The translations under genes were made by a program, and so were the position numbers. From Candidatus Woesearchaeota archaeon (lineage in GTDB: Archaea; Nanobdellota; Nanobdellia; Woesearchaeales; 0-14-0-80-44-23): DNA of 64,000 nt. The stretch covers positions 736,001 to 800,000 of the forward strand of contig JAVZCZ010000001.1 in NCBI GenBank assembly GCA_038874135.1. The letters run 5' to 3'. Under the pieces are notes generated by a model. That model was not told where the DNA came from. It did not search any database and worked only from the letters and a program-made list of their open reading frames with translations. This document shows positions 3,493 through 29,800 of the stretch, piece after piece (position 1 is the first letter of the stretch; every line of letters begins with the position of its first letter).

Positions 3493-3507
3493 GTTCCTCA
3501 GTTTATC

Positions 3508-4215: not shown

Positions 4216-4235
4216 CCCGATTGGAGGTGTAAAAA

Positions 4236-4577
4236 ATGTGGCTCTTGTACGTTTTGGTCAGCATATTCGTATTATTTGCCTGGAGCAGGGCGCTACACAG
4301 GTTCAGAGAGCGAAAAATACAGCTAAACCAGTTCATATTCTGGACGATAATCTGGACGGGAATACTCTGCGCAGTATTCTTCCAAGGCTGGACAGTCTGG
4401 CTTTCTTCTCTCCTGGGAATTGGAAGGGGCTCTGACCTCATCGTTTATGTAAGCGTGGTGCTACTATTCTACCTACTCTTCCGCTTATATGTTAAGACAG
4501 AAAAAATAGAACAAGAAATAACAAAGATAACAAGCTATCTTGCTATTGAAAGAGCAAAAATTTCAAAGAAAAAATAA
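4236..4577 (+). CDS. DUF2304-like small membrane protein (usual GT2 partner)
   Basis: Three TM segments, LGIGRGSDL motif, C-terminal IEQEITKIT coil; directly after GT2; GGAGGTG RBS. Confidence 0.75.
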   Translation: MWLLYVLVSIFVLFAWSRALHRFRERKIQLNQFIFWTIIWTGILCAVFFQGWTVWLSSLLGIGRGSDLIVYVSVVLLFYLLFRLYVKTEKIEQEITKITSYLAIERAKISKKK

Positions 4578-4581
4578 AGAT

Positions 4582-5682: not shown

Positions 5683-5697
5683 AAAGTTCGGTGCGTG

Positions 5698-10330: not shown

Positions 10331-10373
10331 AAAATAAACAGGAATGTAACCACTCCATCATAACAAAAAAATA

Positions 10374-10387
10374 GAAAGATTTATATA
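10374..10387 (+). promoter_or_regulatory. Putative BRE/TATA promoter (GAAAGATTTATATA)
   Basis: Identical to 6891-6904; upstream of ORF 10431, which has a GGGGGT RBS. Confidence 0.6.
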
Positions 10388-10430
10388 TTGGAAATGGTTT
10401 GAAAAAATAAAATAAATGGGGGTATGAAAC

Positions 10431-14404: not shown

Positions 14405-14546
14405 ATATCATAAATAATACATAAATTAACATTTGTCATACATTTTTAATTATCCCATTTGATTTTATTAGAAAAATTTAAAAAGTTTAATTTTTTTGTC
14501 ATACAAAAATAAACAATACGCATACATTGCTTAACGGGCTATTCAG

Positions 14547-14723
14547 ATGGGAAGGCAGCAGAATAAGGAAACCAAAGTTCTCAATATCCGCTTTTCGCCA
14601 GAAATAATCAGATGGCTGGATTCTCTTGTTGAAAAGAAGATATACTCTTCCCGATCAGAAGCCATAAGGGACTTTCTCCGCGAATTTGTTCTTAAAGCAG
14701 GAGGTGAAGAAGCTGAGCAATAG
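14547..14723 (+). CDS. Ribbon-helix-helix (CopG/Arc/MetJ) protein, 58 aa, absent from ORF track
   Basis: Manual translation MGRQQNKETKVLNIRFSPEIIRWLDSLVEKKIYSSRSEAIRDFLREFV...; classic YSSRSEAIR motif. Confidence 0.85.
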   Translation: MGRQQNKETKVLNIRFSPEIIRWLDSLVEKKIYSSRSEAIRDFLREFVLKAGGEEAEQ

Positions 14724-14925
14724 CATAGTGAGTGTTAGAATTCCTCTATCATTAGCTCAGCAGCTTGAACGCCTCTCAAAAAAAGGTCACTATCTTAACC
14801 TGAGTGAGGAAGTAAAAAGTATAGTGCGAAAGAGATGGCTGGAGCATCTGAATTCTGAATCGCGTCTTTCCGAAATAAAAAATGAGCTTAAGGCAGAGCT
14901 TGCCTTGGAGTTGAAGAAAAAATGA
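14704..14925 (+). CDS. Ribbon-helix-helix protein
   Basis: IVSVRIPLSLAQQLERLSKKGHYLNLSEEVKSIVR fits the RHH pattern; overlaps both neighbours; start uncertain. Confidence 0.75.
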   Translation: MKKLSNSIVSVRIPLSLAQQLERLSKKGHYLNLSEEVKSIVRKRWLEHLNSESRLSEIKNELKAELALELKKK

Positions 14926-17900
14926 AGAAGGCAGCTCTGCTTTGGATTATGGGATTAATAATATTTTTTGCTTTAGCCCAGTATGCGCTCTCAGAAGTAA
15001 GTCCAGTTAGTATATCTATAAATCAGCCGGTAGAAGGAGATTCTTTGTACTCAAGCTCCTTGTACGTGCAGTTTTCAATAAATGAGAGCGGAAACTATAA
15101 CTGCACCTTAACTCTTTACTGCGGCGACCTTGGAGGAAATGTTAGTACTTCTTTAATACTCCCTGCTCAGAACTATACAGCATTATCTCCATTAACCGTT
15201 AATCTTGATGCGCCTTCCTGCTCATACTCTTCTAACTACTTGGAAGTGCAGTGCTCAGATGAGCAAGCCTATGGCAATGCCTCTACATATTTTTACATAT
15301 TTGAACTTCCATCCGTGAATACTTACGAACCGAACGATTCTGCAATAATAAACTCTTCCTCATTCCAATTTGAATATGAAATTCTGCCAGAATCGTCAGC
15401 ATACTTAGTTAAAAACTGCGCCCTTATATTAGATGGAACTTCCTGTAACTCTACTGATTTACCTCACAATGGAACAAACAGCATAAGCTGCCCGTTCAGT
15501 GAAGGATCTCACACTTGGAAGGTGCTCTGCACACTCATAGGCTCAGGCCAGGAAACTATTGAAAGTCAAGAAAGAGGATTCTTTGCAGATTATAGTCCTC
15601 CAAATATAAACCTAATTAATCCAAACCAGCCCGCTTACAATTCAGATGTTCCCATTGAATTTAACATTACAGACTCTGCCTCTTCATCATTCAATTGCAC
15701 AATATCCGGCATTCCAGCACCATTCAATCTCAGCTCACTTGTTTCCTACTCTTCTAAGCTTAACCTTCCAGTAGGAAAATATAATCTAACGATTTCCTGC
15801 TCAGATGCTGCTGGAAATTCTGCATATACTTGGCAAGAATTTGAACGAATAAATCTTTCAGTTTCAACTGACAAAAAATATTATATTCCTATGGAAAATG
15901 TGTTTATAACGCTGAACGCTCCTCCTTCCCAAACAAATATCTCAGTTTCAAAAGGCAATTTCACACTGTCCAAAACAACAACTCCACCATATCCAATAGT
16001 CTACATCTTCACATCCTCAAACGAGCCTGGAGATTACCTGGTGCAGGCATTTACAACATATAACAACATAACATTCACTGCCAACACCTCATTCTCAGTC
16101 AATATAACTAGAAACCTTACACTTTCAATATCAGCTAACACCACAACAGCTGAGCCCGGAGTAAGAATCCTATTCTATTCTAATGTTTCAGGAAACCTCA
16201 CTCCTGTTACATACTTGTGGGACTTTAATAATGATAACCTTCCCGAAAGCAGCCTTCCAAATACCGAATACTCTTTCTCACAGCCTGGAAGATACCTCGT
16301 AACTTTAAAAGTGAACGACTCATATTCCTCCGCCTCAGCTTCAATAAATATAACAGTGCTCTCCAGAGCAAATTTGAGCATTACAGTTCTTAACAGGCTT
16401 GGAGAACCTCTCGCTGGAGCAAACATCACGCTAGGCAACACATCTGCCATAACCAACTCCTCTGGAGCAGCAGTCATGCAGAATCTGCTTCAAGGCACAT
16501 ACCCTATAAATGTAACAGCCACAAATTACAATTCGTATTTCAACACAGTGGACATTTCCTCTAACAAAAACATAACAATATATCTACAAGAGCTCACAGA
16601 AGAGCCGGAAATCCTAATAACAGAACCAACAGATGGTGCTACAATAACATCCCTTCCAATTACAATAAGGTTCAAAGCAAATTTATCATATCCTACAAAC
16701 TGCACACTATACAAAAATGAACAACAATCCTGGTGGGAACAGCTTTCTCAGATGGCTGTTACAAACAACACTGAAAATACCTTGTCAGTAGCCAATCTCA
16801 CGGACGGGCAAGTTCTTCTAAGAATCGTATGCACAGATGTATTCGGAAACAGTGGCACCCAACAGATTTCCCTTAACATCAGCACACTACCAAAAGAGCC
16901 GCAATATCCAGAACTAGACCAGGCAGAAGAAGAGCTCTACACAAAACAGGAATACTACAACAGCATAGGACCAGCACAGCTTGAAGCAGCTCAACTATTA
17001 GGTATACCTGATATGCTCTCAGATGCTCAGAACCGATTAACACTCGCCAGGAGGGATCTCTCAGACCTCTCATATTCAAAAAAGAGCCCGGAGGAAAAAG
17101 AAGCAAGAAAGAGTGAAATAATATCTGACGCCGTTTCACGAATCAATGCAATTCCAGATTCAATACAGGTGCTATCTTCTTATGAACAGATACACTATCC
17201 AACTCAGCAAGAGCTGGAAAAGGTGGCAGCTCCCTTCATCTCAGCTAATTCTCTGAAGATAGACCAGCGGACATTCCTAAGAGCAAACTCTCCACTTATT
17301 GAGCTAATAACAATAAATACAAAAGCGTTTTCAATAGTGCTAAATTATAACGGGGAGAGCCGAGAAGTGTCTGTAATAAAGCACTCTGTACAGCTCAGCC
17401 AACAGCTTAACGAATCAGCAATCTCAAACCTGATGTTAATACTCAATATTCCAAAACAGATAGCTGACTCAGCAGCAGGAATCACATTTATGGACAGGTA
17501 TGGACAAAAAGTAGTCAAAGATGATCCAATCTTTTCACTTCCTGTTACAAGCGAAATAGTTTACCAAATAAACAAGAGCATTGATGCAAATTCTGCTTCT
17601 GAGATATCACTCCTCTTAGTAAGCAAGAGTGCTTCAGTTTCAATACCAGGCATATCGGGACTGGCAGTTTCACAGACAAGGTATTCCATCTGGCCTTTCA
17701 ATCTCATTGGAGGAAAAATTGGCTCCAGTTTAGCTATTCAAATAGTAATACTTGTAGTGCTTCTTACCATATACTTAGTATACACCCTTCAGCCGGAAAT
17801 AATAAGCAGATCAGCAGATGCACTAGGAAATCATATCAAAAATCTCAGACCTCGCTCGGAAAATAGGATGAAGCAAATAGTCCATGCTGAGAAGTCAATT

Positions 17901-18440
17901 CCCACAACACTACAGAACAATTTAGCTAGCATGCCGCAGCAACAAACATACTCACCCATTCAACAACAAGTAGTTCCCATAGGGCCTGGAATGCAGCATT
18001 CTTACATTGCTTACAGAATGCAACGGGCTCTTCAGTTGGCAGAGCAGAACAACTATGAGGAAGCTTCAGCCGCATATTATGAATTAAAATTCCTTTATAA
18101 CACGCTCAGCTCTCACGAAAAATCCCTACTTTATCCGCAATTATTAAACCTGGGACACAAGCTTAACATTTCCTATATCAGACAGTTAGTTTCAGAAGCA
18201 AAGTTAAAGGTTAATTCAGACTACCAAGAAGCCCTTGAACTTTATGATAAGATCTCCAAGGCATACTCACTGCTCCCTACAGAGTTCAAGTATGCAGTGT
18301 TCTCTGAATGTCTTGAGCTTCTAAACATTCTTGAAAGGGCAAGAAAAAACCAGAACAACTCTGAAAATCAAGCAGTAACCTTCAAAAAGAAAAAAAAGAG
18401 GTGCAGGTCAAAATCACACGCCAAGGCGAGAAGGGCATAA
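14922..18440 (+). CDS. Large surface protein: Ig repeats, PKD domain, carboxypeptidase-regulatory-like domain, coiled coil, TM, helical (TPR-like) cytoplasmic tail
   Basis: Signal peptide; YLWDFNND..FSQPGRYLVTLKVND (PKD); PLAGANITL..TNSSG; TM LAIQIVILVVLLTIYLV; repeated YEEA..Y helices. Confidence 0.8.
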   Translation: MKKAALLWIMGLIIFFALAQYALSEVSPVSISINQPVEGDSLYSSSLYVQFSINESGNYNCTLTLYCGDLGGNVSTSLILPAQNYTALSPLTVNLDAPSCSYSSNYLEVQCSDEQAYGNASTYFYIFELPSVNTYEPNDSAIINSSSFQFEYEILPESSAYLVKNCALILDGTSCNSTDLPHNGTNSISCPFSEGSHTWKVLCTLIGSGQETIESQERGFFADYSPPNINLINPNQPAYNSDVPIEFNITDSASSSFNCTISGIPAPFNLSSLVSYSSKLNLPVGKYNLTISCSDAAGNSAYTWQEFERINLSVSTDKKYYIPMENVFITLNAPPSQTNISVSKGNFTLSKTTTPPYPIVYIFTSSNEPGDYLVQAFTTYNNITFTANTSFSVNITRNLTLSISANTTTAEPGVRILFYSNVSGNLTPVTYLWDFNNDNLPESSLPNTEYSFSQPGRYLVTLKVNDSYSSASASINITVLSRANLSITVLNRLGEPLAGANITLGNTSAITNSSGAAVMQNLLQGTYPINVTATNYNSYFNTVDISSNKNITIYLQELTEEPEILITEPTDGATITSLPITIRFKANLSYPTNCTLYKNEQQSWWEQLSQMAVTNNTENTLSVANLTDGQVLLRIVCTDVFGNSGTQQISLNISTLPKEPQYPELDQAEEELYTKQEYYNSIGPAQLEAAQLLGIPDMLSDAQNRLTLARRDLSDLSYSKKSPEEKEARKSEIISDAVSRINAIPDSIQVLSSYEQIHYPTQQELEKVAAPFISANSLKIDQRTFLRANSPLIELITINTKAFSIVLNYNGESREVSVIKHSVQLSQQLNESAISNLMLILNIPKQIADSAAGITFMDRYGQKVVKDDPIFSLPVTSEIVYQINKSIDANSASEISLLLVSKSASVSIPGISGLAVSQTRYSIWPFNLIGGKIGSSLAIQIVILVVLLTIYLVYTLQPEIISRSADALGNHIKNLRPRSENRMKQIVHAEKSIPTTLQNNLASMPQQQTYSPIQQQVVPIGPGMQHSYIAYRMQRALQLAEQNNYEEASAAYYELKFLYNTLSSHEKSLLYPQLLNLGHKLNISYIRQLVSEAKLKVNSDYQEALELYDKISKAYSLLPTEFKYAVFSECLELLNILERARKNQNNSENQAVTFKKKKKRCRSKSHAKARRA

Positions 18441-20782
18441 TTTGTGCTCTGCTTTTAGGAATTGTAACTATAATCTTAGGTAGTTATGCCTGCGCTTTGG
18501 AATTTTCACCATCTTCAATTAACGAAGTGCTTTCTATTAACAAGTTTGTTCAGAAAAACATAACTTTGAAGAATGAACTCTCCTATCCGGTAAGGATTGC
18601 TCTGGTGCCCTCTTCTAACATTAGCGATTTATTAGACATCACTCCAAATTCTATTGAAATCGGGGCAAGAGAGTCAAAGAATGTTCTGGTTACAATATAC
18701 GGAAATGTTGATCCTATAAAATTTATTAATCGCTCGTATTACATCTTTAATGGCTTCATAAAGCTTGAAGGAGCTAACGCTCAAATACCTACGGACTTGA
18801 TGGTCACTAATGGAACAATAAACCTGCCCAGCAGCATGGTGCTTTCAGCATCGGCAGGTAAGGATTATTTCACTAAATCAGAAAATCTCTCTTTTATAAT
18901 TGTTGTAACGAATCTTATGACAGGCTCAAAACCAAATGTTACTCTTTTCTATTATTTCCTAATTGATAAAAACTCAGAAATTCCCGTTGGGAACGATTCC
19001 TTCATAATTACTACTTCAAAATCAGTTGTAAAGGAATTCATACCAATGTCTTCAATACCTGATGGCACCTATACTTTCAGGGTTGTAATGTCTTATGCAG
19101 ATAAGAAGAGTGTTGCTGATGTGCCCTTCAGGATATCAACCCCATTTATATTCAGAACATTCTTAGGTATAGCTGTATGGCAGTATATACTCGGAGTGAT
19201 TGCCTTAATAATAATTGGCTTGTTAGTATACTGGCGAAGGAAGCGTGTTTTGGCTTCTCGTCGTTATGGTGTGAGTGTGGATTTGCGTAGTTTTCCTTCT
19301 TCTGGTAGGCTTGTGCGTTTGGGTAAGTTGGCGGAGTATGGGCGTGATTTTTGGTTTGATTTGGATGGTTTGACTACGCATTGTATTGTGGCTGGTGCTA
19401 CTGGTGGTGGTAAGACTGTTGCTGCTCAGGTTTTGGTGGAGGAGGCTTTGAAGGCTGGTGTGGCTGTGGTTGTTTTTGATCCTACGGCTCAGTGGAGTGG
19501 TTTTTTGAGGCCTTGTTCTGATAAGGGTATGTTGTCTTTGTATTCGGGTTTTGGGTTGCGTCGTTCTGATGCTCGGGGTTTTCCGGGTAATGTGAGGCAG
19601 GTGTTGGATGCTCGTGAGGTTTTTGATGTTAGGCGTTTTATGCGTCCTGGTGAGATTGAGATTTTGAGTTTGAATAGGTTGAGGCCTGAGGAGATTGATG
19701 TTTTTGTGGCTAATACTGTTAGGAGCGTGTTTGATGCGGGTTTGGATGAGTGTCGTGAGTTGAGGTTGTTGTTGGTTTATGATGAGGTGCATAGGTTGTT
19801 GCCGCGTTTTGGCGGTTCTGGTGAGGGTTTTGTGCAGATTGAGAGGGCTTGTCGTGAGTTTAGGAAGTGGGGTGTTGGTGTTGTTTTGATTAGTCAGGTT
19901 TTGTCTGATTTTGTTGGTGAGATTAAGGCTAATATTAATACTGAGGTTCAGATGAGGACTCGTGATGAGGGCGATTTGGAGCGTATTCGTGTTAAGTATG
20001 GTGATGCTTATCTTAGGGGTCTTGTGAGGGCTAGTGTGGGTACTGGTATGTTTGAGAATCCCGGTTATAATGGTGGTCGTCCTTTTTTTGTTAGTTTTAG
20101 GCCTTTGTTGCATAGTGTGGTTCGTTTGTCTGATGCCGAGTTGGGTGAGTATAATAGGTTGAATGGGGTGTTGGATGATTTGGAGTTTTGGATTGGCGAG
20201 TTGGAGCGTTTGGGTGTGGACGTGTTTGATTTGAGGTTGGAGTTGAAGTTGGCTTGGGATAAGTTGAGGGTTGGGGGGTTTGGGATGGTGGATGTTTATG
20301 TTGAGGGTTTGAGGCCTCGCGTGTTGGGCGAGTTTGAGCGTTTGGGGAGGCCTGTTCCTAAGCGTGAGGTTAAACGCCTTTCAGATGAGGAGCTTGCAAA
20401 GCAGAGGAAGCTGGCTGAGCAGAGCCGTGCAGAGTTTATAAAAAAGATGGGCATTAAAGAGCAGCAGTCCAAGCAGGAGGAAAAGAAGGAAGAACACATC
20501 GTGCAGCCTTACACTTTTGATAATGGTGCAATGGTTTCGGAGCTTAAGGAGTTGAAAGACGCTATAGAACCTATGAGTGCTGACATCCTCAGAAGCGCGT
20601 TGAGTGGAAACAATAAGCTTTCTGATTGGATAAAGAATGAGCTTAAGAATGAGCAGCTTGCCTCTGAAATTGAGAAGGCGAAGACGAAAAAGGAGATTCT
20701 TGATGCAATAACTGCTGAACTTGATAAAGCAGAAAAGAGCAGTGAGAAATCTGGAACTGATAAAGGCCAAAAGTCTAAGTAG
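18401..20782 (+). CDS. Membrane-anchored HerA/FtsK-superfamily (DUF87-like) ATPase with extracellular Ig-like domains and C-terminal DUF5752-like domain
   Basis: Walker A GATGGGKT, VVFDPT, Walker B LLVYDEVH, REFRKWGVGVVLISQ; TM before the ATPase domain; start uncertain. Confidence 0.85.
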   Translation: MQVKITRQGEKGIICALLLGIVTIILGSYACALEFSPSSINEVLSINKFVQKNITLKNELSYPVRIALVPSSNISDLLDITPNSIEIGARESKNVLVTIYGNVDPIKFINRSYYIFNGFIKLEGANAQIPTDLMVTNGTINLPSSMVLSASAGKDYFTKSENLSFIIVVTNLMTGSKPNVTLFYYFLIDKNSEIPVGNDSFIITTSKSVVKEFIPMSSIPDGTYTFRVVMSYADKKSVADVPFRISTPFIFRTFLGIAVWQYILGVIALIIIGLLVYWRRKRVLASRRYGVSVDLRSFPSSGRLVRLGKLAEYGRDFWFDLDGLTTHCIVAGATGGGKTVAAQVLVEEALKAGVAVVVFDPTAQWSGFLRPCSDKGMLSLYSGFGLRRSDARGFPGNVRQVLDAREVFDVRRFMRPGEIEILSLNRLRPEEIDVFVANTVRSVFDAGLDECRELRLLLVYDEVHRLLPRFGGSGEGFVQIERACREFRKWGVGVVLISQVLSDFVGEIKANINTEVQMRTRDEGDLERIRVKYGDAYLRGLVRASVGTGMFENPGYNGGRPFFVSFRPLLHSVVRLSDAELGEYNRLNGVLDDLEFWIGELERLGVDVFDLRLELKLAWDKLRVGGFGMVDVYVEGLRPRVLGEFERLGRPVPKREVKRLSDEELAKQRKLAEQSRAEFIKKMGIKEQQSKQEEKKEEHIVQPYTFDNGAMVSELKELKDAIEPMSADILRSALSGNNKLSDWIKNELKNEQLASEIEKAKTKKEILDAITAELDKAEKSSEKSGTDKGQKSK
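19239..20394 (+). repeat. 1156 bp direct repeat, copy 1 (partner 23419-24574), G/T-rich, encodes the ATPase domain
   Basis: Sense translations and the overlapping antisense ORFs are identical; offset 4180; boundaries read from sequence. Confidence 0.95.
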
Positions 20783-20890
20783 ATTTCTTATACCTTAACC
20801 AACAATGTGGTATTTATAAACTTAGATTACTTAGTATGCATTTATACACATACACTATTTGTGTCACATTTAAAAATTAGTATATAAAAT

Positions 20891-20906
20891 GAAAATATTT
20901 ATATAT
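20891..20906 (+). promoter_or_regulatory. Putative BRE/TATA promoter for the second RHH pair operon
   Basis: GAAAATATTTATATAT, nearly identical to 42544-42558. Confidence 0.55.
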
Positions 20907-20970
20907 CAATATACATATTTAGTATGAGTTTGTATTCAAAGACCTTGAAAAGGCTTTTTTGGGACCCGAA

Positions 20971-21159
20971 ATGCGCAGTACGCCTGAGAAGCATGGCTCA
21001 AAGAGAATAACCATAACCATAAGCAAGGACCTTTTAGACTTCTTAGATTTAGCTGTGGAGAACAGGCTGTTCGCAAGCAGAAGTCATGCACTTGAAGTCT
21101 TAGTAAGGCGCAGGATGGAGTTTGAGAATGAAGCAAAGAATTACAATTACATTGGATAG
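20971..21159 (+). CDS. Ribbon-helix-helix protein
   Basis: KRITITISKDLLDFLDLAVENRLFASRSHALEVLV; ATG at 20971 is in frame with track ORF 20959. Confidence 0.85.
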   Translation: MRSTPEKHGSKRITITISKDLLDFLDLAVENRLFASRSHALEVLVRRRMEFENEAKNYNYIG

Positions 21160-21319
21160 TGAATGCCTGGCATGGGTTGATGAAAAGGTAAAGAATAGAA
21201 GCTTTGCTAATCGGAGCCACGGCTTTGAATTTTTAATAGCGCGATTCAAGGAGCGCCAAGAACTTCAGAATCTTCTCAACTCGCGAAATTCAAAGGAGGA
21301 AGACTTAAAACATGAATAA
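21128..21319 (+). CDS. Ribbon-helix-helix protein, paralog of the preceding gene
   Basis: MKQRITITLDSECLAWVDEKVKNRSFANRSHGFEFLI. Confidence 0.85.
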   Translation: MKQRITITLDSECLAWVDEKVKNRSFANRSHGFEFLIARFKERQELQNLLNSRNSKEEDLKHE

Positions 21320-24300
21320 AAATCCTACCTTCAGGATACTGGAACGGGACAGGCAGCTGGAAAGGAGAAGACAGCAGCTGTACATCCTATTAGGCATCTT
21401 AGGAGTTTTACTAGCAGTTGGTGTTATACTTCTGATAAGAATGTTCATAGGATACGCAGTTCTGGAAAGCAGGGCTGGCACAATAACACAACTTAATATA
21501 CAGCTCAGATACTCAACACACATATGGGCTGGATTTTACGGATTGGCATTCCGCGTTCCCGGATACACTGAGCAGCAGTCTGCAGTTGCAGTCGGCGGCA
21601 CAGTCTTCTTGCAGCACTTAGTATTTGACTGCTTAAAAACTACAGACGGCAACATTCCTGAGGTATATGCCAGTACTTCAAGAAACATTGACTGGAATTC
21701 ACTCCAGCCAGCAACTCCAGACTTGATTGACAGCTACCTACAAGTAGATCCTTCAGATATAACCTCTGCTTCAAACACATTTACAGAAACAATGTCAATA
21801 CTCTTAGGAGACAGAGAAATCACAAATATTGCTGCAACGCACACCAAAAAGTTCGGAGTTCCGGACAGCACGGACTTTGATATAGGCTTCTTAAAAGATT
21901 CGTTGGGAAATCTCGTATTTGTAACCCATGTAACTCCAACTTATACCAAAGGATTTAACAACCAAACTATAAACTACCAAATGCTCCTTCCAGTACAAGC
22001 AGGAACAGCTCCAGTATACTACTTCTTCTCAGACCCATATGACGAGTGCCAAGCAGGGCTTGAAGCTCTCAAAAATGCTACCATATTCGGAAGAGCCATA
22101 GACAATGCAACAGGCCTTCCACTTGAAAATGTTACAGTTAATCTTCATACTGCTACAGTTCTTACCAACTCTACAGGAGACTATTACATAGCAATATTTA
22201 ACGGCACCTACACCCTAGTAGCTTTCAAGCCGGGATATTACACCTTTGTTGCAACAAACATCACTCTCCCAGCTGACAATCTGTCTACACCTCAATCTGA
22301 AAATATTGTCGAATTTAATATATCCCTCATTCCCAACCCTGGAAACCCAACTGGACTCGGAAACCTAACTGGCACTGTAACTGATAAAGACTTCGGAATA
22401 CCCCTCTATAATGTAACAGTGTATGTAAACGGCAGAATCGCTAAGACAAACATTACAGGCCAATACCTACTTGAACTGCCAGCAGGAAATCATTCTCTTA
22501 TAGCAATGAAGGAAAACTACAGAACATACTACACTCCAAATGTAACTATACTGCCTGGAAACACCACTGAATTTAATTTCAGTATGGAATATGCAGAGCC
22601 AGAAATAAAAGAAACTCCTGGATATCCGCTAAATACCTTCGTTTCCAACCTACTCAAACAGGCAGTGCAGAGGCCTCAAATAATACTCACTCATAAGATT
22701 GATACAAAAGAGATATTTGAAACATTAAAAGTTGGCTCATATGTCCAGCGCTCATTCAATATAACGAGTTACAGGCCTGCCGAGTCCAAAGTTGAGTTTG
22801 AAGTCATAGGAAGTGCTGCACAGCTGGTAAAGGTTGACAAGAGCAGCTCAATAATACCTCCAAGGGGTGCAGAAAACTTCACCCTTACAATTCTAGCCAA
22901 TGTGCCTCCAGGCATATATACCGGAACATTCCTAATCAAAGGAGACCTTGAAGACAGAATCCCGATAAAGATAGTTGTTTATGAGAAGGATAGACTTCCA
23001 ATAGAGGCTCTTCTCCTAGAAGTAGTGCCAATAAAAAAGATAATCAGCCCAGGAGAACTATTTGAATATAAGGTCAGCATGACAAACCTGCTGAGGGACA
23101 CCCCATACAACATCACCCTTTCATACAATATCACCTCGCGCTCTTCAAATCTTACTATTCCCGTTGAAGAAGAGACGAGACTCTTGGAAACTCAGCTTTC
23201 CTACCTTAAGTATTACAAGCTTCCCAAAGACCTGCCAGAAGGAGAATACTTCCTTGAAACTAGAGCGGAATTCTTAGAACTATCAACAAACACAAAATCG
23301 CTATTCATAGTTAAGAAGCCAATTTACATGTATGCATTATTCGGAATACTTCCCCTCTGGCAGCTTTTCATAATAATAGTTTTCACCTCCCTCATGACCT
23401 TCGCAGGATTAATGTATCGGAAGCGTGTTTTGGCTTCTCGTCGTTATGGTGTGAGTGTGGATTTGCGTAGTTTTCCTTCTTCTGGTAGGCTTGTGCGTTT
23501 GGGTAAGTTGGCGGAGTATGGGCGTGATTTTTGGTTTGATTTGGATGGTTTGACTACGCATTGTATTGTGGCTGGTGCTACTGGTGGTGGTAAGACTGTT
23601 GCTGCTCAGGTTTTGGTGGAGGAGGCTTTGAAGGCTGGTGTGGCTGTGGTTGTTTTTGATCCTACGGCTCAGTGGAGTGGTTTTTTGAGGCCTTGTTCTG
23701 ATAAGGGTATGTTGTCTTTGTATTCGGGTTTTGGGTTGCGTCGTTCTGATGCTCGGGGTTTTCCGGGTAATGTGAGGCAGGTGTTGGATGCTCGTGAGGT
23801 TTTTGATGTTAGGCGTTTTATGCGTCCTGGTGAGATTGAGATTTTGAGTTTGAATAGGTTGAGGCCTGAGGAGATTGATGTTTTTGTGGCTAATACTGTT
23901 AGGAGCGTGTTTGATGCGGGTTTGGATGAGTGTCGTGAGTTGAGGTTGTTGTTGGTTTATGATGAGGTGCATAGGTTGTTGCCGCGTTTTGGCGGTTCTG
24001 GTGAGGGTTTTGTGCAGATTGAGAGGGCTTGTCGTGAGTTTAGGAAGTGGGGTGTTGGTGTTGTTTTGATTAGTCAGGTTTTGTCTGATTTTGTTGGTGA
24101 GATTAAGGCTAATATTAATACTGAGGTTCAGATGAGGACTCGTGATGAGGGCGATTTGGAGCGTATTCGTGTTAAGTATGGTGATGCTTATCTTAGGGGT
24201 CTTGTGAGGGCTAGTGTGGGTACTGGTATGTTTGAGAATCCCGGTTATAATGGTGGTCGTCCTTTTTTTGTTAGTTTTAGGCCTTTGTTGCATAGTGTGG

Positions 24301-24854
24301 TTCGTTTGTCTGATGCCGAGTTGGGTGAGTATAATAGGTTGAATGGGGTGTTGGATGATTTGGAGTTTTGGATTGGCGAGTTGGAGCGTTTGGGTGTGGA
24401 CGTGTTTGATTTGAGGTTGGAGTTGAAGTTGGCTTGGGATAAGTTGAGGGTTGGGGGGTTTGGGATGGTGGATGTTTATGTTGAGGGTTTGAGGCCTCGC
24501 GTGTTGGGCGAGTTTGAGCGTTTGGGGAGGCCTGTTCCTAAGCGTGAGGTTAAACGCCTTTCAGATGAGGAGCTGCAGAAGGAAAAGGAGATTGCTATGC
24601 AGGAACATGAGAAAGCAAAACAGCAGGAAGCAGGACAAACTTCACAAAATTCAGATTCCAAGACAGAAACTTCCCAAATTCAAAACACAAAAGTTGAAGA
24701 GCAGCCCAGCCAAAATGAAAAGGCCGAGAACCAAGAGAATGCAAAATCCTCAAATGAAAATAAAATTAAAAGAGTAAGGGAGGGTAAAAAGCAGAGGATG
24801 AGGAAATCAGCAAGTTCGGAAAAAAATAATAAAAAAAGAGGTGCTAAAAAATGA
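21312..24854 (+). CDS. Membrane-anchored HerA/FtsK-superfamily ATPase with N-terminal family-A (WxGxYG) domain, two carboxypeptidase-regulatory-like domains and Ig-like domains
   Basis: N-terminal TM; AGTITQL..WAGFYG..YQMLLP..YYFF domain; DNATGLPLENVTV and DKDFGIPLYNVTV repeats; second TM; ATPase domain identical to that of 18401-20782. Confidence 0.85.
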   Translation: MNKNPTFRILERDRQLERRRQQLYILLGILGVLLAVGVILLIRMFIGYAVLESRAGTITQLNIQLRYSTHIWAGFYGLAFRVPGYTEQQSAVAVGGTVFLQHLVFDCLKTTDGNIPEVYASTSRNIDWNSLQPATPDLIDSYLQVDPSDITSASNTFTETMSILLGDREITNIAATHTKKFGVPDSTDFDIGFLKDSLGNLVFVTHVTPTYTKGFNNQTINYQMLLPVQAGTAPVYYFFSDPYDECQAGLEALKNATIFGRAIDNATGLPLENVTVNLHTATVLTNSTGDYYIAIFNGTYTLVAFKPGYYTFVATNITLPADNLSTPQSENIVEFNISLIPNPGNPTGLGNLTGTVTDKDFGIPLYNVTVYVNGRIAKTNITGQYLLELPAGNHSLIAMKENYRTYYTPNVTILPGNTTEFNFSMEYAEPEIKETPGYPLNTFVSNLLKQAVQRPQIILTHKIDTKEIFETLKVGSYVQRSFNITSYRPAESKVEFEVIGSAAQLVKVDKSSSIIPPRGAENFTLTILANVPPGIYTGTFLIKGDLEDRIPIKIVVYEKDRLPIEALLLEVVPIKKIISPGELFEYKVSMTNLLRDTPYNITLSYNITSRSSNLTIPVEEETRLLETQLSYLKYYKLPKDLPEGEYFLETRAEFLELSTNTKSLFIVKKPIYMYALFGILPLWQLFIIIVFTSLMTFAGLMYRKRVLASRRYGVSVDLRSFPSSGRLVRLGKLAEYGRDFWFDLDGLTTHCIVAGATGGGKTVAAQVLVEEALKAGVAVVVFDPTAQWSGFLRPCSDKGMLSLYSGFGLRRSDARGFPGNVRQVLDAREVFDVRRFMRPGEIEILSLNRLRPEEIDVFVANTVRSVFDAGLDECRELRLLLVYDEVHRLLPRFGGSGEGFVQIERACREFRKWGVGVVLISQVLSDFVGEIKANINTEVQMRTRDEGDLERIRVKYGDAYLRGLVRASVGTGMFENPGYNGGRPFFVSFRPLLHSVVRLSDAELGEYNRLNGVLDDLEFWIGELERLGVDVFDLRLELKLAWDKLRVGGFGMVDVYVEGLRPRVLGEFERLGRPVPKREVKRLSDEELQKEKEIAMQEHEKAKQQEAGQTSQNSDSKTETSQIQNTKVEEQPSQNEKAENQENAKSSNENKIKRVREGKKQRMRKSASSEKNNKKRGAKK
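23419..24574 (+). repeat. 1156 bp direct repeat, copy 2
   Basis: Matches 19239-20394. Confidence 0.95.
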
Positions 24855-25675
24855 AGTCAAAAAAATCAGTTAAGTATAGAGCGAGAGTTCACAATAAGGC
24901 TAACTCAAGCAAGAAAGATTTGAGAAAAAAGAAGGTTCGCATTGAGAGAAAAAATAGCACTAAAACAATTAGTAAAGAAACATCACCTAAAAAATCCAAA
25001 GCTTACTTAAAAAAGCGATTTGGCAAGATTGATAACAGAGTTATTAAAAATAAAAATAATAAAGTAAAACCAGGAGCTTTAAAGCACAGAAAAAAAGAGA
25101 AGAAGCAGAATGTTCAAAAAAGAAGAAAAGCAATGCAAAAAAAGCCAGCGCCTGAAAACGCAGCCGCAGCAACCAACCAAGTACAGACAAATACGACTTC
25201 AACAGCTCAGCAGGCAAATTCTCAAATTGAAACACATTCAGATGTGGAAGCGCTTCAAAAAGAATACTCAGATATCAACAGCTATCTGGTTCAGCGAAGA
25301 AAAGCGGGAGTTGACACCTTCATACAGGAACTGAAACTTTTTTCAATACCGTCAAAAATTCAGCTTTTAAAGGCAGAATACTCAAAAGATTATGCTGACA
25401 AGATTAGAGTTCAACTTAATGAGATTAGAGAAGAGTTAGAAAAAGCAGAACCTCAACCGACCCCCCTTGACCTTCCTAAAGTTCAGCCGAACCAGCCGAA
25501 TCCATTCTCAGAGCAACAGCTCACAAGTCAGAATAATAATCATCCCTTAACGCAGGATGCAGAAAACTATTCAAAAGAACTAGCTGAGAAGCGCCTTTCA
25601 AATAAAATAAAAAATTCTCTGAGAAATGCTTCCAAAAAAGTTATGTCCATATTCAAAAAAGGAGGTGGAAATTAG
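24851..25675 (+). CDS. Hypothetical cytoplasmic protein, Lys-rich N-terminus plus helical domain
   Basis: 274 aa, ATG overlaps upstream stop; no TM or signal peptide. Confidence 0.7.
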   Translation: MKSKKSVKYRARVHNKANSSKKDLRKKKVRIERKNSTKTISKETSPKKSKAYLKKRFGKIDNRVIKNKNNKVKPGALKHRKKEKKQNVQKRRKAMQKKPAPENAAAATNQVQTNTTSTAQQANSQIETHSDVEALQKEYSDINSYLVQRRKAGVDTFIQELKLFSIPSKIQLLKAEYSKDYADKIRVQLNEIREELEKAEPQPTPLDLPKVQPNQPNPFSEQQLTSQNNNHPLTQDAENYSKELAEKRLSNKIKNSLRNASKKVMSIFKKGGGN

Positions 25676-26833
25676 ATGTTCAACCTTTTCAAACGGAAAA
25701 ACTCTGAAGAAGTTCCCAATCAACAATCAGCTAACGAAGATCTGACAGCTCCAGCACAAACCCAGCAAACTGCTACTACGCAAGGACAGGAAAACCTCGC
25801 TGCAGAATTAATGAAGATTAAGGCAGAAGTGGAAGCATTTTCAGATGTAAGAAAAGCCACAAATGAGAAACTTACAAGACTAAGCGAGCAGATTGGAGAG
25901 CTAAGAGCAATGATTGCAGACAGAGACAAGGTGATGAATCAGATAGAGGTTAAAGCTACAAAGGCAGCAGATCTCGTAGCCACAGTTAAGCCTGAAGAGC
26001 AGATGGTAGAAATAAAGCGTCAGGATGCAAAACTTGAAGCGTTTAAAGCATCTCTGGAGAGCAATGAACTTTTGATGAAGAGAGTTTTAGACGAACTTAA
26101 AGAGATGAGAACAAAGATAGCTTCCTTCCGCGGAATTGAGGAACTAATCAACCTTAACAATGAAGTAAAATCTGAAATAATTGAAATAAAAAAGGTTGAA
26201 GCAAACATACAAAAGCATGCAGACAAGGTAGAAACGATATTTGCAGAGGTTCAGAAAAGATTCGTTGACTTTACAAAAATTGATGATAGGATAGCATCCA
26301 ACACGAAGCAAATAGCAGAGCTATCAAAGAACTTGGACGGAGTGAAGGCAACTGCCTCGGCAGCAGCCACAAAAAAGAGTGTAGATGAACTAACTTCCAA
26401 ATTCTTAGAAATGAAAGACCAACTCTCAGAACTGGTTTCAACAATAAACAAGCGCCTCTCCTTAGTGGAGAAGAACAATTCTGCAGCATTTGAAGCTTTT
26501 GAAAAAGCGATAATGCACAAGTTTAAACTTTCAAAAGAGGAAGTAGCTGTATTTAAAGAGCAAGTACAGCAGAATCAGCAAGCCCAGCCAACTCAGCAAA
26601 TATCCCAGCCGCAGGATGTCTCTCAAAAGAGCAATACTCAAGAGCAAAATCTTCAGACCAGTGAAGCACCCGAAGCTCTACCACAGCCGCAAGCCTCTCA
26701 GCAGGTTCAGCAGCCGCAGAGTGAGCCAAATGAGCAAGACTCAAAAAAGCCTGACAGCAGCATTCAGAAAGAGATAAGAGAAGCAGCCAAGTTTGCTAAA
26801 AGGATAAAAAGCAAAAAAAGAAAGAAGAAATGA
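25676..26833 (+). CDS. Long coiled-coil cytoplasmic protein
   Basis: Heptad-rich (EKLTRLSEQIGELRAMIADRD...), Gln-rich tail, GGAGGTG RBS, translationally coupled. Confidence 0.75.
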   Translation: MFNLFKRKNSEEVPNQQSANEDLTAPAQTQQTATTQGQENLAAELMKIKAEVEAFSDVRKATNEKLTRLSEQIGELRAMIADRDKVMNQIEVKATKAADLVATVKPEEQMVEIKRQDAKLEAFKASLESNELLMKRVLDELKEMRTKIASFRGIEELINLNNEVKSEIIEIKKVEANIQKHADKVETIFAEVQKRFVDFTKIDDRIASNTKQIAELSKNLDGVKATASAAATKKSVDELTSKFLEMKDQLSELVSTINKRLSLVEKNNSAAFEAFEKAIMHKFKLSKEEVAVFKEQVQQNQQAQPTQQISQPQDVSQKSNTQEQNLQTSEAPEALPQPQASQQVQQPQSEPNEQDSKKPDSSIQKEIREAAKFAKRIKSKKRKKK

Positions 26834-29800
26834 ATAGCTCCAAATTTTTCAAACTAATAATTTTAGGGTTTATAATAGTGGTAGGTCTCCTAAGCCAGTC
26901 AAAAGCAGACAGCATCCAAGCAGTATATGGCAATACTCAACTCATACTCACAGACAAGCCGCAGTACACTTTGGGAGAAAGTGTAAAGATAAACATACTA
27001 ATCCCAACACAACTGCTTTCAGGAATGAATGTTGAAATAGATACCCCTGCTAGCAGATACCAACTTCTTGATTCAAATCTTTCAGAAGTATACTTCACTC
27101 CACAGCAAGAGGGAAACTATACTATTAAAATATCTTCAGCAGCTGGGAATTTAATATCATCAACTTCTTTTTTAGTACTAAGAAAATCTGAAGTTGAAAT
27201 TCCCTCATCAGATAGCACCAGCCCCAAATTGTCTGCAAAAAACTGGAAGGGAAATTATCAAAAAATACTAAGACAGGAATACCTACCTGCCAACAAGAAG
27301 CTTTCAATAGAATTCTCAGAACTTTCAATACAGAAGATTGATTTTTACAATGTTTCAAATCCGAATGGAGAACTGAAAATAGAAGATGTGCCTCTATCTT
27401 ATGTTGAAAACTTTTCAGGAAGAGCAGCGCGCTCATTTGCAATAGACCCAACTTTATTAGAATTTACTTATGCTGAAATTTACTTTACTGCAACTGCCAA
27501 CGAGCTGTGGAAGTGCCGCGAATACGACTTCTCAACTAGAAGCTGCGCGGGAAGATATGTAAAAATAATGGACACCATTCCGGGCAGGCAGTATATCTTA
27601 CACCTCACCAAAGAGGATCCTCTCTACACAGAAGTATGGAACAATATAACCTGCACCTGCCAGAATACAGGCCCAAATAACGGCTGGGCATACTGCGAGG
27701 TATTCTGTCCGGTCAACATTCCAATACCAACAGACGCTTTAGATGGATTCATTCAGATACTAGGCTATAATGTCACCATCACTACATCCTACCCGGCAGG
27801 CGGGTACATCACGCCTAATTCTGGAATGCACTACGGCTTCTTTGATAGGGACCAGCTGAAAAGCAACGGAAACGAATCCCTAATAGGCTATGTGGCTTAT
27901 GATGGCCCCGGAACAACCACTCAGCTCATATACAACACCAGCATGGCACCGTCTGGAGCATATGCATTTAACAGGGCAAACTGCCCGACTTGGACCTCAG
28001 GATACTGCACCTGGTATGTATTTCTCAACTCAACTGCAAAGAGCAGCAAGGTTAAAAGGCCTGTGACTGTTAATATAACTCTTAATAGCATAAACTGGAC
28101 TTGGAATTATACAACCCCTGCGCCTTCAAACATTACAATAAACCTTACAAGTCCAGCAGACAATACTGCCCTCGGATTTAGAAATGTGAATTTTTCCTAT
28201 ATTCCCATTTCAAGTTCTCCAGTTTCAAACTGCAGCCTTTTTATAAACATTACAGGTAGTTGGAATGCAGTTGCCACAAGCTACTCAATACAAAATAATT
28301 CTGTCAACAGTATAAATTATACTCTTTCTAACGATGGCGAATACCTCTGGAATATCAGGTGTTATGCTGGAGACATCAGCAGTTTTGCACTATACAACAG
28401 AACTCTAATAGTTGATACCGCACCCCCTTCAGTCACACTTCTTTCTCCTAACAATAACTCATTTTCTAACACATCTATAATCTCTTTCATTTACAATGTG
28501 AGTGACAACTTTAACATTGCTAACTGCTCATTAATACTGGACAATGTTCTAGTTGCAACTTCATACGCAGTTACTAAATATGTCCCGCAGAATATTACCT
28601 ACGCGTTATCTAATGGCGTCCACAACTGGAGCATAACTTGTTTTGACTTTGCAGGCAATTTTAACATTTCCGAAAGTAGGATCATAAATATATCCGCAGT
28701 ACCTACCATCTGGGACAGAAGGTGGTATGAAACTTCAACATCAGATTATACCTCTACAGCAAACATTTCTCTCGCAAATTTAAGGGACTCAACAGAAAAT
28801 TCCATATCCGTTTCAGTTCCAGTTTCAACATCTTACACCCTTGTAGATGCGATTTCTCCATACATTGGAAGCAACGGGGCATTCGTTCCCAAAGGCACAA
28901 ATGTATCTTTCAGCGGAGAATTCTCTACCAGCCCAAATGCAAAGGGAGTTATAAGCTGGTTCTTATACCAGACTGAGGGTTCAACAAAAAACCTTCTCTG
29001 TAATTACGGAAATGGCGGCTCGCTAGGCGCACCCATCTCATCAACAACAACTGCAAGCTGCACTATACAAAATGACACTCTAATGCTCCCAACAAATAGA
29101 TTACAACTTATTATAATCTACTATAACAATTTCAAAAATTTAGTGTCTGTAACCCACTATTGGGATGGCACTAGGCTCTCGTTCGTTGAATTTTCAAACT
29201 TTACTACCTTAGGAACATTAAGCGTTGACCTCTCCTATCCAGACACGGATATAACAGTGGGCCAGAACGAACTGTTCAATATGAGCTGCACAGTTAACTG
29301 CTCAGGAGGAAGCTGTCTTAACACACTCGTCTATGCACAGTATAACACGAGCTCAACGGCATTCACCAACATAGGAAGCTCCGGAAATCTCATTCTTAAC
29401 ACTGGAGAGACAAATCCCCATTCTCTCGGGAATATCAACCAGAGCTACACTACAACATTCTTAATAAAAGGAAACCTTGCATCAACAAACAACATAAGAT
29501 GCGTAGCAGTTTCAAACTATTCAAACGCTACAGGCCAGATTATAAGAAGGGTAGTTGTGGGGGACACTACGCCTCCAACAGTAAGTCTTGGAAATCCAGC
29601 AAACTTTTCTTGGCTGAAGAGTAAAACAGTAACAATCTATTACACGCCCTCAGACAACAGCGGAATTACTAACTGTTCAATATACTTGAATGATATTTTG
29701 AATTATACTCTTAATTCAGTTCCGAACGGGATTGAGCAGAACTTCACATTCCATAATCTTTCAGACGGACTTTACAATTGGACTGTAGCATGTACTGACA

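Follow-up and report, generated by a model that had tools for sequence, protein, structure and literature searches.

Why should two neighbouring genes of a tiny, symbiotic-type archaeon share one domain letter for letter when the sequences on either side of it diverge? The question is raised by a 64,000-nt stretch (the window) from a Candidatus Woesearchaeota archaeon whose genome, labelled G000 here, is a single 909,956-bp contig with overlapping ends. Two genes on the plus strand, A1 (18401..20782, ORF1; 793 aa, the short or S form) and A2 (21312..24854, ORF2; 1180 aa, the long or L form), encode paralogous, predicted membrane-anchored ATPases of the HerA clade. A scripted comparison identified an exact direct repeat of 1156 nt on the same strand, with 19239..20394 matching 23419..24574 at an offset of 4180 and 100% identity, an exactness that is assembly-based, as short-read assemblers can merge copies about 99% alike. 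Each copy comprises 384 codons, covering the whole ATPase core and a helical extension, and in both genes the tract starts one codon-group past the transmembrane (TM) helix. Its edges are sharp: the 5' flanks drop at once to about 25% identity, and the 3' flanks to 53% and then about 30%. Two is also the copy number of this cassette in the whole genome. The shared motor is thus a confirmed observation, and the first-pass annotation was right that the identity is limited to the motor.

Both proteins run from a signal or anchor through an ectodomain and a TM helix to the ATPase, and both contain AGATGGGKT, LLLVYDEVH and REFRKWGVGVVLISQ. Each has two hydrophobic segments, the second of which, the TM helix (A1 residues 253-278, 19157..19234; A2 residues 673-700, 23328..23411), is directly followed by RRKR in A1 and RKR in A2. 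N-x-S/T sequons number 7 and 21 in the respective ectodomains, and there are none in 995 cytoplasmic residues. Together, these features bear out the receptor-like topology proposed earlier and argue for a glycosylated Ig-like stalk outside the cell, one membrane-crossing helix and a cytoplasmic ATPase. The A1 ectodomain (18500..19156) is predicted to form two tandem Ig/FnIII-like beta-sandwiches; its AF2 model (mb9d3f178a620) has a pLDDT of 90, and its Foldseek matches are tandem Ig-like/FnIII proteins. In A2, an N-terminal anchor is followed by a head of about 400 aa with two CarboxypepD_reg domains, the stalk, the TM helix, the motor and a Q/E/K-rich tail. Because A1 residues 39-224 align with A2 residues 467-646 (25% identity, E 5e-8), A2 can be read as an A1-like stalk to which this head has been added. 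The claim that the ectodomains differ therefore stands as far as their low identity and the extra head are concerned, but they are not unrelated, since the stalks are homologous. The tails differ as described and cannot be aligned. The DUF5752 match of the A1-specific tail (20395..20782) is sub-threshold: the DUF5752/DUF7118-like domain of about 65 aa at ~20510-20710 scores 15 bits (E 0.016), short of the 23-bit cut-off. The same domain is also found at the C terminus of a 164-aa ORF (41874-42368) and of an 844-aa ORF on the minus strand (50553-53087).

The pair sits in a conserved operon of surface proteins, all encoded on the plus strand. Upstream lies a 1172-aa bitopic surface protein (14922..18440; Pfam, hydropathy and sequons) with a signal, PKD and CarboxypepD_reg domains, 40 sequons, a TM helix at 935-953 and a cytoplasmic tail of about 220 aa; a homologue precedes the ATPase in 51 loci. 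The spacer between A1 and A2 (20783..21311) holds no Rfam family, nor does any Rfam family match elsewhere in the window. Downstream follow two cytoplasmic proteins without TM helices, namely a 274-aa basic, low-complexity/coiled-coil protein conserved only in the nearest relatives (24851..25675) and a 385-aa coiled-coil protein (25676..26833), a conserved partner of the ATPase pair with homologues in 56 loci and weak matches to SMC/Sec10 coiled coils. A secreted, adhesin-like protein of 2346 aa with Big_7, Big_13 and CARDB domains and 132 sequons (26830..33870) is a conserved operon member in 47 loci. Across the family, protein lengths are bimodal, with a short and a long class, the S and L genes form a conserved adjacent pair, and each ectodomain type, S or L, is found again at other loci.

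To which branch of the HerA/FtsK superfamily does the motor belong? Membership in the superfamily was borne out, with HerA as the top match by both profile and fold. Against the PDB, the motor profile matched HerA 4d2i at E 7.8e-12 and other HerA proteins at 1e-10 to 7e-8, compared with 0.007 for FtsK and 0.009 for DotL; in Foldseek, the motor model (a monomer, pLDDT 89.7) retrieved HerA at ranks 1-3, followed by TcpA and FtsK. The kinship is distant: sequence identity to HerA is 13-15%, Pfam DUF87 and HerA_C score above cut-off but across the P-loop stretch only, and the NCBIfam models HerA_Thermprot (34.6 bits, cut-off 800) and helicase_HerA (25.3, cut-off 970) are far from satisfied. Like archaeal HerA (PDB 4d2i, 9x1l) and the anti-phage SIR2-HerA and DUF4297-HerA, the motor has a RecA-like core with Walker A/B motifs and a sensor/arginine region. 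Canonical HerA, however, is soluble with a HAS-barrel N-domain, whereas the A1/A2 core lacks the barrel and follows a TM helix, with only about 35 residues between helix and core in the model. Canonical HerA, which works with NurA as an end-resection helicase, also has NurA (with Mre11/Rad50) as its operon partner; the A1/A2 operon has no NurA, SIR2 or DUF4297. The earlier statement that NurA is absent is correct for the neighbours of the locus but not for the genome, whose sole NurA match lies about 100 kb away (G000 656501-657073). A defence system was rejected, as the PADLOC matches to HerA/mad8 are at superfamily level only. VirD4/TrwB/TcpA, FtsK and the Ced ATPases share with A1/A2 an N-terminal membrane anchor and a cytoplasmic FtsK/HerA-superfamily motor but lack a large ectodomain. 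T4SS-type profiles touch the P-loop only (TrwB_AAD_bind 18.7 against 20.5 bits, T4SS-DNA_transf 16.3 against 20.1), TraD/TraC reach 27-30 bits against cut-offs of 366-567, PF03135 (the VirB4 N-domain) finds no match in A1 or A2, and no T4SS families or Ced partners occur among their neighbours.

A close parallel in overall design is SPEARE of the Nanohaloarchaeota, which likewise combines a big glycosylated or adhesin-like outside part, a single TM helix near the C terminus and a cytoplasmic P-loop ATPase. SPEARE relatives occur in Woesearchaeota, Aenigm-, Micr- and Altiarchaeota, and versions of 655-717 aa are also listed (Hamm et al. 2019, PMC6642349); in a re-annotation, the giant SPEARE gene has a further, smaller ATPase gene as its neighbour (Reva et al. 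2023, PMC10266531). The A1/A2-type motor is spread over the phyla reported in Hamm 2019, and among the 150 relatives listed it always closes the protein at the C terminus, preceded by anything from 250 to over 5600 residues. Motors 55-57% identical to it occur in proteins of 2.1-2.9 kaa labelled Nanohaloarchaea/Nanohalarchaeota (P0157, P0146). SPEARE giants differ in exceeding 3000 aa and in carrying laminin-G, protease-like and toxin-like parts, whereas A1 and A2, at 793 and 1180 aa, show no such Pfam domains. Among solved structures, the A1/A2 motor is closest to HerA rather than to VirB4/TraG or a restriction enzyme, and the SPEARE papers (Hamm 2019, Reva 2023) make no mention of identical motors or of a tract confined to G/T-ending codons. 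From sequence, then, A1 and A2 appear to represent an old and conserved kind of gene pair, a short and a long member side by side, encoding HerA-clade, membrane-anchored putative ring ATPases, and their motor appears to be the SPEARE-type cytoplasmic motor of DPANN archaea, a link made via the labelled Nanohaloarchaeal giants. Our best guess for its task is that it uses ATP to translocate a polymer at the contact surface of the cell.

How, then, did the two motors become identical? Stalks that are homologous yet 25% identical argue for gene conversion and against a recent duplication. The earlier suggestion to look for homogenised pairs in related genomes proved fruitful: the orthologous, syntenic pair of L032 has its own identical core (1240 nt at 100%), as does L115 (355 codons at 100%, with diverging edges). 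Tract length thus varies by lineage (1156, 1240 and ~1065 nt), while the motors of different lineages are 13-27% apart in amino acids (orthologous pairs 87% and 73% identical). In the motor tree, S and L pair by genome in eight cases (G000, g115, g032, G036, G033, g050, G029 and G038; SH-aLRT 93-100). In four other genomes (G026, g052, g040 and g075) they fall into separate, well supported clades at ~62% identity, so the pair can persist without identical motors. The 1156-nt tract is therefore best read as a gene-conversion tract: the motor alone seems to have been copied repeatedly between two direct-repeat genes, which would let the pair evolve in concert while stalks and tails diverge, and conversion has apparently continued while at least three lineages separated.

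Two other readings draw on the same assemblies. The copies could be merely similar, at 97-99% for instance, and have been collapsed into a single consensus during assembly: a repeat of 1.2 kb is longer than short-read inserts, and two related assemblies (L031 and L116) show a single chimeric gene, as expected of an assembler short-cut through the repeat. Three independent assemblies, however, place both copies with an identical core on one contig (G000, closed at 910 kb; L032, 492 kb; and L115), and L115 resolves diverging edges beside its core. Even a merged 99% pair would need conversion, given the 13-27% divergence between lineages, and we regard such an artefact as highly improbable. Alternatively, the direct repeats could serve as sites of programmed recombination that deletes or swaps heads and tails, for example joining S stalk, motor and L tail to vary the surface. 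L116, 99.9% identical to L032 on both flanks, lacks exactly the 4455-nt inter-repeat interval, and the L031 chimera joins an S ectodomain (91% to that of L032_A1) to the L032_A2 tail. Yet an assembler short-cut would give the same pattern, a deletion would be irreversible without a replicating circle, and no recombinase or reverse transcriptase lies near A1/A2. Programmed rearrangement is in our judgement unlikely. A diversity-generating retroelement target was also rejected, as the copies are identical at adenines too and the genome has no RVT_1.

Gene conversion accounts for the identity, but what about the composition of the tract? The cassette has 97% G or T at third codon positions and 75% G+T overall, and this skew begins at the first identical codon and is coextensive with the identity. 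On the G+T-rich strand, here the coding strand, nearly every A or C that selection can do without has been replaced by G or T. The bias reaches the protein, with arginine up 2.1-fold and valine 1.9-fold and lysine and isoleucine down to 0.34 and 0.33. Non-synonymous sites show no ongoing excess of A/C to G/T changes (11, against 15 in reverse). The L031 and L032 cassettes have 100% G/T-ending codons, compared with fractions of 0.2-0.75 in ~100 other homologues. A mirror ORF of 296 aa runs along the minus strand (19223..20113, with a twin at 23409-24293), and matching antisense ORFs exist in L032 and L031. It is a codon-aligned by-product: sense codons ending in A are absent, hence TTA, CTA and TCA are too, and the mirror frame meets no stops. 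We rejected a genuine antisense gene as the force shaping the codons, because the mirror ORF is automatic and C-ending codons are depleted as well. A transcription-linked bias, always on the coding strand, was rejected in view of four giant ORFs in which the coding strand of the skewed repeat modules is rich in A and C.

Could the cassette simply be foreign, its motor module acquired from a donor whose codons end in G or T (another Woesearchaeote, a plasmid or a virus) and recently recombined into both genes? Its GC content of 47%, where the window has 40%, and its alien codon usage invite this reading, and in multi-gene regions of some Woesearchaeales 85-92% of codons do end in G or T. Codon usage is ordinary, however, in the closest outgroup motors (61-63% aa identity), and viral contigs gave no match, for which reason a viral or mobile origin was rejected. 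Moreover, the skew is held at 97-100% in lineages 13-27% apart in amino acids, whose third positions are almost saturated with G<->T exchanges (93 such changes between the G000 and L032 motors). Such values point to a skew that is maintained in place rather than passively inherited, and we consider a foreign cassette very unlikely.

The skew is not confined to the motor. Strongly skewed windows make up 1.03% of the genome and hold 75.6% of its repeat bases, and the other skewed repeats encode unrelated surface modules. Their polarity flips between the genome halves that cdc6 and the GC-skew minimum delimit, a rule drawn from 6 independent repeat families and from an origin located solely through cdc6 and the GC-skew maximum. 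If the origin adjoins cdc6, the G+T-rich coding strand of the cassette is the leading strand. The polarity rule comes from G000; in four other genomes (G037, G034, G049 and G040), cdc6 lies on contigs other than those of the islands examined. Repeats are not a prerequisite, as G037, another member of the Woesearchaeales, has skew islands in single-copy housekeeping genes. These islands, together with older homogenisation events in the motor family that have no skew left, reduce the causal tie of conversion to skew to an association, one to which a single genome contributes most; other loci of relatives offer 3 intra-locus repeats, too few to check it independently.

This genome-wide pattern also bears on whether function keeps the motors alike. 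The first-pass annotation had suggested that identical motors would permit mixed hexamers with two ectodomains on display, so that binding outside might be coupled to translocation or filament assembly. On this view, S and L would co-assemble in one ring, and selection would keep the motor interfaces matching. The adjacency of the genes, the conservation of the pair across the family, homogenisation in several separate lineages and the hexameric state of solved HerA homologues (from the titles of the structure matches) all speak for such a ring. As stated, though, the proposal is unsupported, because S and L motors have remained apart in the four genomes named above and the tract is an island of a generic repeat type, whose identity and skew most other repeats of the genome share while encoding unrelated surface modules. 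Since the tract coincides with such an island, recombination mechanics alone can explain the identity; mixed hexamers are compatible with the data but not demanded by them, and we find selection for them doubtful.

Taken as a whole, we consider it likely that the locus combines a conserved SPEARE-type, HerA-clade pair, gene conversion of the motor and a strand-skew island, for which we would propose deamination of single-stranded DNA. No known process explains the strand bias, and a literature search for G+T-skewed genes in DPANN archaea found nothing usable. A possible route starts with recombination at replication forks, which would expose one repeat strand as single-stranded DNA. Deamination would turn C and A on this strand into U and hypoxanthine, and this in a cell whose genome yielded neither a uracil-DNA glycosylase (UDG) nor an endonuclease V, and conversion would carry the outcome into both copies. 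Recombinase prefers GT-rich DNA, and single strands rich in G+T may themselves be better substrates for recombination; for such a preference of RadA, a literature search found nothing usable. In general form, we propose tentatively that in Woesearchaeales, and perhaps in other hot-spring archaea, a recombination-coupled, strand-specific process drives repeats to G/T saturation of the leading strand and keeps the copies identical.

For the SPEARE-type motor of DPANN archaea, the analysis gives a firmer identity, as a member of the HerA clade that always follows a membrane helix and is commonly encoded by a short-plus-long gene pair within a conserved surface-protein operon. The pair is a concrete target for asking how host-dependent DPANN cells exchange material at contact sites. 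In its identical motor, nature provides a very clean example of concerted evolution restricted to one domain, tied to an extreme strand bias of 97-100% G/T-ending codons over about 390 codons. If repeats are indeed rewritten by a single-strand process, one strong enough to alter the amino acids of an essential-looking motor (Lys to Arg, Ile to Val), then codon usage, horizontal-transfer calls and evolutionary rates need rereading, and these islands would offer a natural system for archaeal recombination intermediates.

Finally, we would place this behaviour beside known cases of concerted evolution and strand-specific mutation. The tufA and tufB genes of Salmonella are paralogues that evolve in concert by gene conversion; as there, copies within one genome stay identical, over ~1.2 kb here, while orthologues diverge. 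Unlike tufA/tufB, conversion here is limited to one domain of multi-domain genes and coincides with G/T saturation of one strand. Strand-coordinated deamination of single-stranded DNA underlies the heavy/light-strand asymmetry of vertebrate mtDNA and the mutation clusters of break-induced replication; these share with our islands C>T and A>G changes on one strand and a polarity tied to replication or recombination. The islands differ from them in their size of ~0.2-1.5 kb, their codon-sharp edges and their extent, with 97-100% of silent positions affected and three quarters of the genome's repeat DNA marked. The process proposed here would parallel fungal repeat-induced point mutation or break-induced 'kataegis', but in a form that homogenises the copies.

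Two neighbouring genes, the short ATPase A1 (18401-20782, + strand, an ORF of 793 aa) and its long paralogue A2 (21312-24854, + strand, an ORF of 1180 aa), share an exact 1156-nt repeat (19239-20394 = 23419-24574), delimited by a script extending the initially found repeat. The identical motor tract reported in the first-pass annotation is thereby confirmed. Immediately 5' of this cassette, identity drops at once to the chance level of ~25%; on its 3' side lies a short Glu/Lys-rich stretch, diverged yet recognisably homologous. AGATGGGKT, LLLVYDEVH and REFRKWGVGVVLISQ are present in both proteins. The source genome, G000, is a single contig of 909,956 bp, 99.4% complete, whose ends share a 141-nt overlap, and it contains two copies of the cassette only.

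Both proteins start with a hydrophobic anchor and have, further on, a second hydrophobic helix (residues 253-278 in A1 and 673-700 in A2), followed immediately by RRKR and RKR, respectively. Between the helices there are 7 N-x-S/T sequons in A1 and 21 in A2, versus none in the 995 residues past the second helix of A1 and A2; together, helices, basic motifs and sequons show extracellular ectodomains and a cytoplasmic ATPase, the topology first proposed. Modelled with AlphaFold (pLDDT 90), the A1 ectodomain comprises two tandem beta-sandwiches and resembles tandem Ig/FnIII-like proteins by structure match. A2 carries a head of ~400 aa, holding two CarboxypepD_reg domains, and C-terminal to it a stalk that aligns with the A1 ectodomain (25% identity, E 5e-8). 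The ectodomains do differ, as had been claimed, and A2 has the extra head, but their stalks are homologous. No alignment was found between the A1 and A2 tails, and the DUF5752-like character given to the A1 tail is visible only below threshold, as a DUF5752/DUF7118-like domain that recurs at the ends of the ORFs 41874-42368 and 50553-53087(-). This cytoplasmic domain of ~65 aa, of the HVNFERND..W type and weakly DUF5752-like, lies at 20510-20710, 42190-42368 and 50553-50800(-) of the window and so ends three different proteins: A1 itself, a soluble protein of 164 aa and a bitopic receptor of 844 aa. It matches 58 related loci, mostly as an ATPase tail.

How did two such different proteins come to carry the same motor? 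A1-type and A2-type ectodomains both recur across genomes, which, together with stalks only 25% identical, indicates that the pair is ancient; the identity of the motors must therefore stem from copying between the genes. Related genomes contain homogenised pairs as well: the locus L032, from a Kamchatka Woesearchaeota MAG (73% aa to A1/A2), has a syntenic pair with its own 1240-nt tract at 100%, and in the pair of locus L115 (87% aa) 355 codons are 100% identical, with edges that diverge progressively. The cassettes of these three lineages differ by 13-27% aa. Between the G000 and L032 cassettes there are 93 third-position G<->T changes, while none separates the copies within a genome. Assembly collapse, which would make cassette copies look identical, is a small residual risk. 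In a tree of 29 motors (quick IQ-TREE search), the short (S) and long (L) motors of one genome group together in eight genomes (SH-aLRT 93-100), which requires the S/L label to change at least 8 times, whereas four genomes (G026, g052, g040, g075) have separate S and L clades; elsewhere in the family, same-genome motor pairs are 61-79% identical. Homogenisation is thus recurrent in the motor family, perfect in the G000 sublineage and absent in another. The motor has evolved in concert, and the identity of A1 and A2 is the product of gene conversion, sustained over speciation. The suggestion that identical motors assemble into mixed hexamers is compatible with the data, which do not need it.

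Two other close relatives have a single chimeric gene. L116 and L032 are assemblies of almost the same strain, 99.9% identical on both flanks. Positions 10836-12081 of L116 correspond to both L032 cassette copies (9948-11193 and 14403-15648), and precisely the 4455-nt interval that separates these copies is absent from L116. L031 likewise has one gene made of S-stalk, motor and L-tail. Such a chimera could be genuine, the direct repeats having recombined and lost the interval, or it could come from an assembler short-cut.

The truly odd feature of the converted tract is its G/T-only, strand-skewed spelling. At third codon positions it has 97% G/T (G 41%, T 56%, C 2.6%, A 0.5%), and its overall G+T is 75%; the flanks of the two genes have ~40-50%. 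The skew starts at the very codon where identity starts and fades toward the 3' end, the 12 non-G/T codons all lying within codons 162-381 (10 end in C); it is coextensive with the converted tract. Among ~100 homologous motors, the skew is limited to the nearest relatives, with G/T third positions at 100% in L031 and L032 and at 0.19-0.75 in the others; the L115 and L116 cassettes are saturated too. Third positions vary between lineages, yet almost solely by G<->T, so the skew is actively maintained rather than a relic of import. Compared with other homologues, the cassette is altered in amino acids (R x2.1, V x1.9, G x1.5, K x0.34, I x0.33), with K>R and I>V replacements at columns otherwise conserved. 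Such a shift points to mutation pressure, with A>G and C>T confined to one strand, rather than to translational selection.

Skew and repetition are linked throughout G000. In a genome self-comparison almost all long repeats were skewed: windows with G+T of at least 0.72 or at most 0.28 account for 1.03% of the genome, yet for 75.6% of repeat bases. A keto-rich (G+T-rich) strand that is always the coding strand was ruled out by four giant surface-protein ORFs (G000 342616-351834(+), 670128-677072(-), 677619-681026(-) and 291666-293636(+)): in their repeat modules, 81-90% of third positions are A/C. One A/C-spelled module forms an inverted pair across the genome halves (343762-344046 / 672293-672009, 97.9%). 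Polarity follows the genome half: the + strand is keto-rich in all strong skew islands at 671-782 kb and the - strand in the islands at 165-347 kb, a rule kept by 7/7 repeat segments from 6 independent families, and by 11/14 families once weak non-repeat islands are included. The single orc1/cdc6 gene (588647-588907) coincides with the maximum of cumulative GC skew rather than with its minimum, which is near 75 kb; an origin next to cdc6 would make the keto-rich strand the leading one.

The window holds further examples. At 8000-10330 (G000 743997-746327) lies the gene of a secreted, Cys-rich protein of 776 aa that matches no Pfam family; its codons 15-515 are almost exclusively G/T-ending (T3 0.79), and its internal 219-nt repeat (8083-8300 / 8640-8858, 98.6% identity) is one 68-aa Cys-rich module encoded twice. 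An 815-nt module (35060-35870 and 45641-46451, 94.5% identity), saturated in G/T-ending codons (A3 0.00, C3 0.02), is common to a 2612-aa ORF (33867-41705) and a 752-aa ORF (45378-47636).

Of 151 sampled Woesearchaeales genomes, 61 contain runs of 55 codons that all end in G/T, a count that includes some acidic low-complexity false positives and the unpublished genome G134, on which no claim depends. In genome G037, skewed tracts span single-copy housekeeping genes (rpe, phosphoglycerate mutase, sugar epimerases), so repeats are not required for skew. Across its loci L110 (G037:C2:72600-76000) and L111 (G037:C3:60800-63900), 85-92% of codons end in G/T over several kb; the single-copy genes skewed there include ribulose-phosphate epimerase, phosphoglycerate mutase, helicase, NAD-epimerases and a glycosyltransferase, and the giant ATPase gene of this genome has 32%. 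At a contig start in G034 (G034:C2:1-480, L112), a type IV pilin-like gene fragment runs through 83 consecutive G/T-ending codons; judging by the contig break, this fragment may be another repeat.

We infer a mechanism in which recombination at replication forks would expose one strand of the repeats in single-stranded form; deamination of its C and A, if not repaired, would yield T and G, and conversion would then fix the deaminated sequence in both copies. RecA, Rad51 and RadA favour GT-rich single strands, a preference that could close a feedback loop. In the 99.4%-complete closed G000 genome, neither UDG (PF03167) nor endonuclease V (PF04493) gave a match, two HhH-GPD glycosylases are encoded (491548, 384321), and no reverse transcriptase was found.

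Finally, we would like to place the motor among known ATPases. Pfam recognises the P-loop stretch only, as DUF87 and HerA_C, and no NCBIfam or PADLOC model came near its own cut-off on A1/A2. A profile built from 68 motors matched HerA of Saccharolobus best (4d2i, E 7.8e-12), along with further HerA structures, with FtsK and DotL marginal; the motor model (pLDDT 89.7) ranked HerA folds (4d2i, 9x1m) first, then TcpA and FtsK. HerA, however, has a HAS barrel and a NurA partner, and the A1/A2 motor has neither. The reported absence of NurA holds for the locus but not for the genome, which encodes NurA and two further DUF87 proteins elsewhere. The motor family comprises 419 clusters (E<=1e-30) among 1.84 billion representatives, and in all 150 relatives listed the motor is C-terminal, after 250 to >5600 residues. 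Protein lengths near the query are bimodal (~760-860 and ~1135-1380 aa); longer motor proteins reach 3.9 kaa in Woese-, Pace-, Nanohalo-, Aenigm-, Micr- and Altiarchaeota, and relatives contain open frames of 5-11 kaa.

The surrounding surface-protein operon is conserved: across ~110 fetched loci, relatives of the upstream 1172-aa PKD protein occur in 51, of a 385-aa coiled-coil protein in 56 and of a 2346-aa adhesin-like protein in 47. Upstream of it, a glycosylation cluster (661-6810) encodes AglB/STT3 oligosaccharyltransferase (661-3492), a GT2 glycosyltransferase, UDP-GlcNAc 2-epimerase and a geranylgeranyl-reductase-like FAD oxidoreductase. Our best guess, by analogy with HerA, FtsK and coupling proteins, is that the motor would energise polymer translocation, or remodelling of the operon-encoded surface apparatus, at cell-cell contacts. 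A1 and A2 belong to a kind already described, with a putative function: from architecture and phylum distribution, both matching published descriptions (Hamm 2019, PMC6642349), they are probably SPEARE proteins, surface proteins of DPANN archaea with a cytoplasmic ATPase. The cytoplasmic part of SPEARE proteins has been re-annotated as a VirB4/TraG-like ATPase, next to whose gene lies that of a second ATPase (Reva et al. 2023, PMC10266531), whereas the motor described here is nearer HerA by profile and fold.
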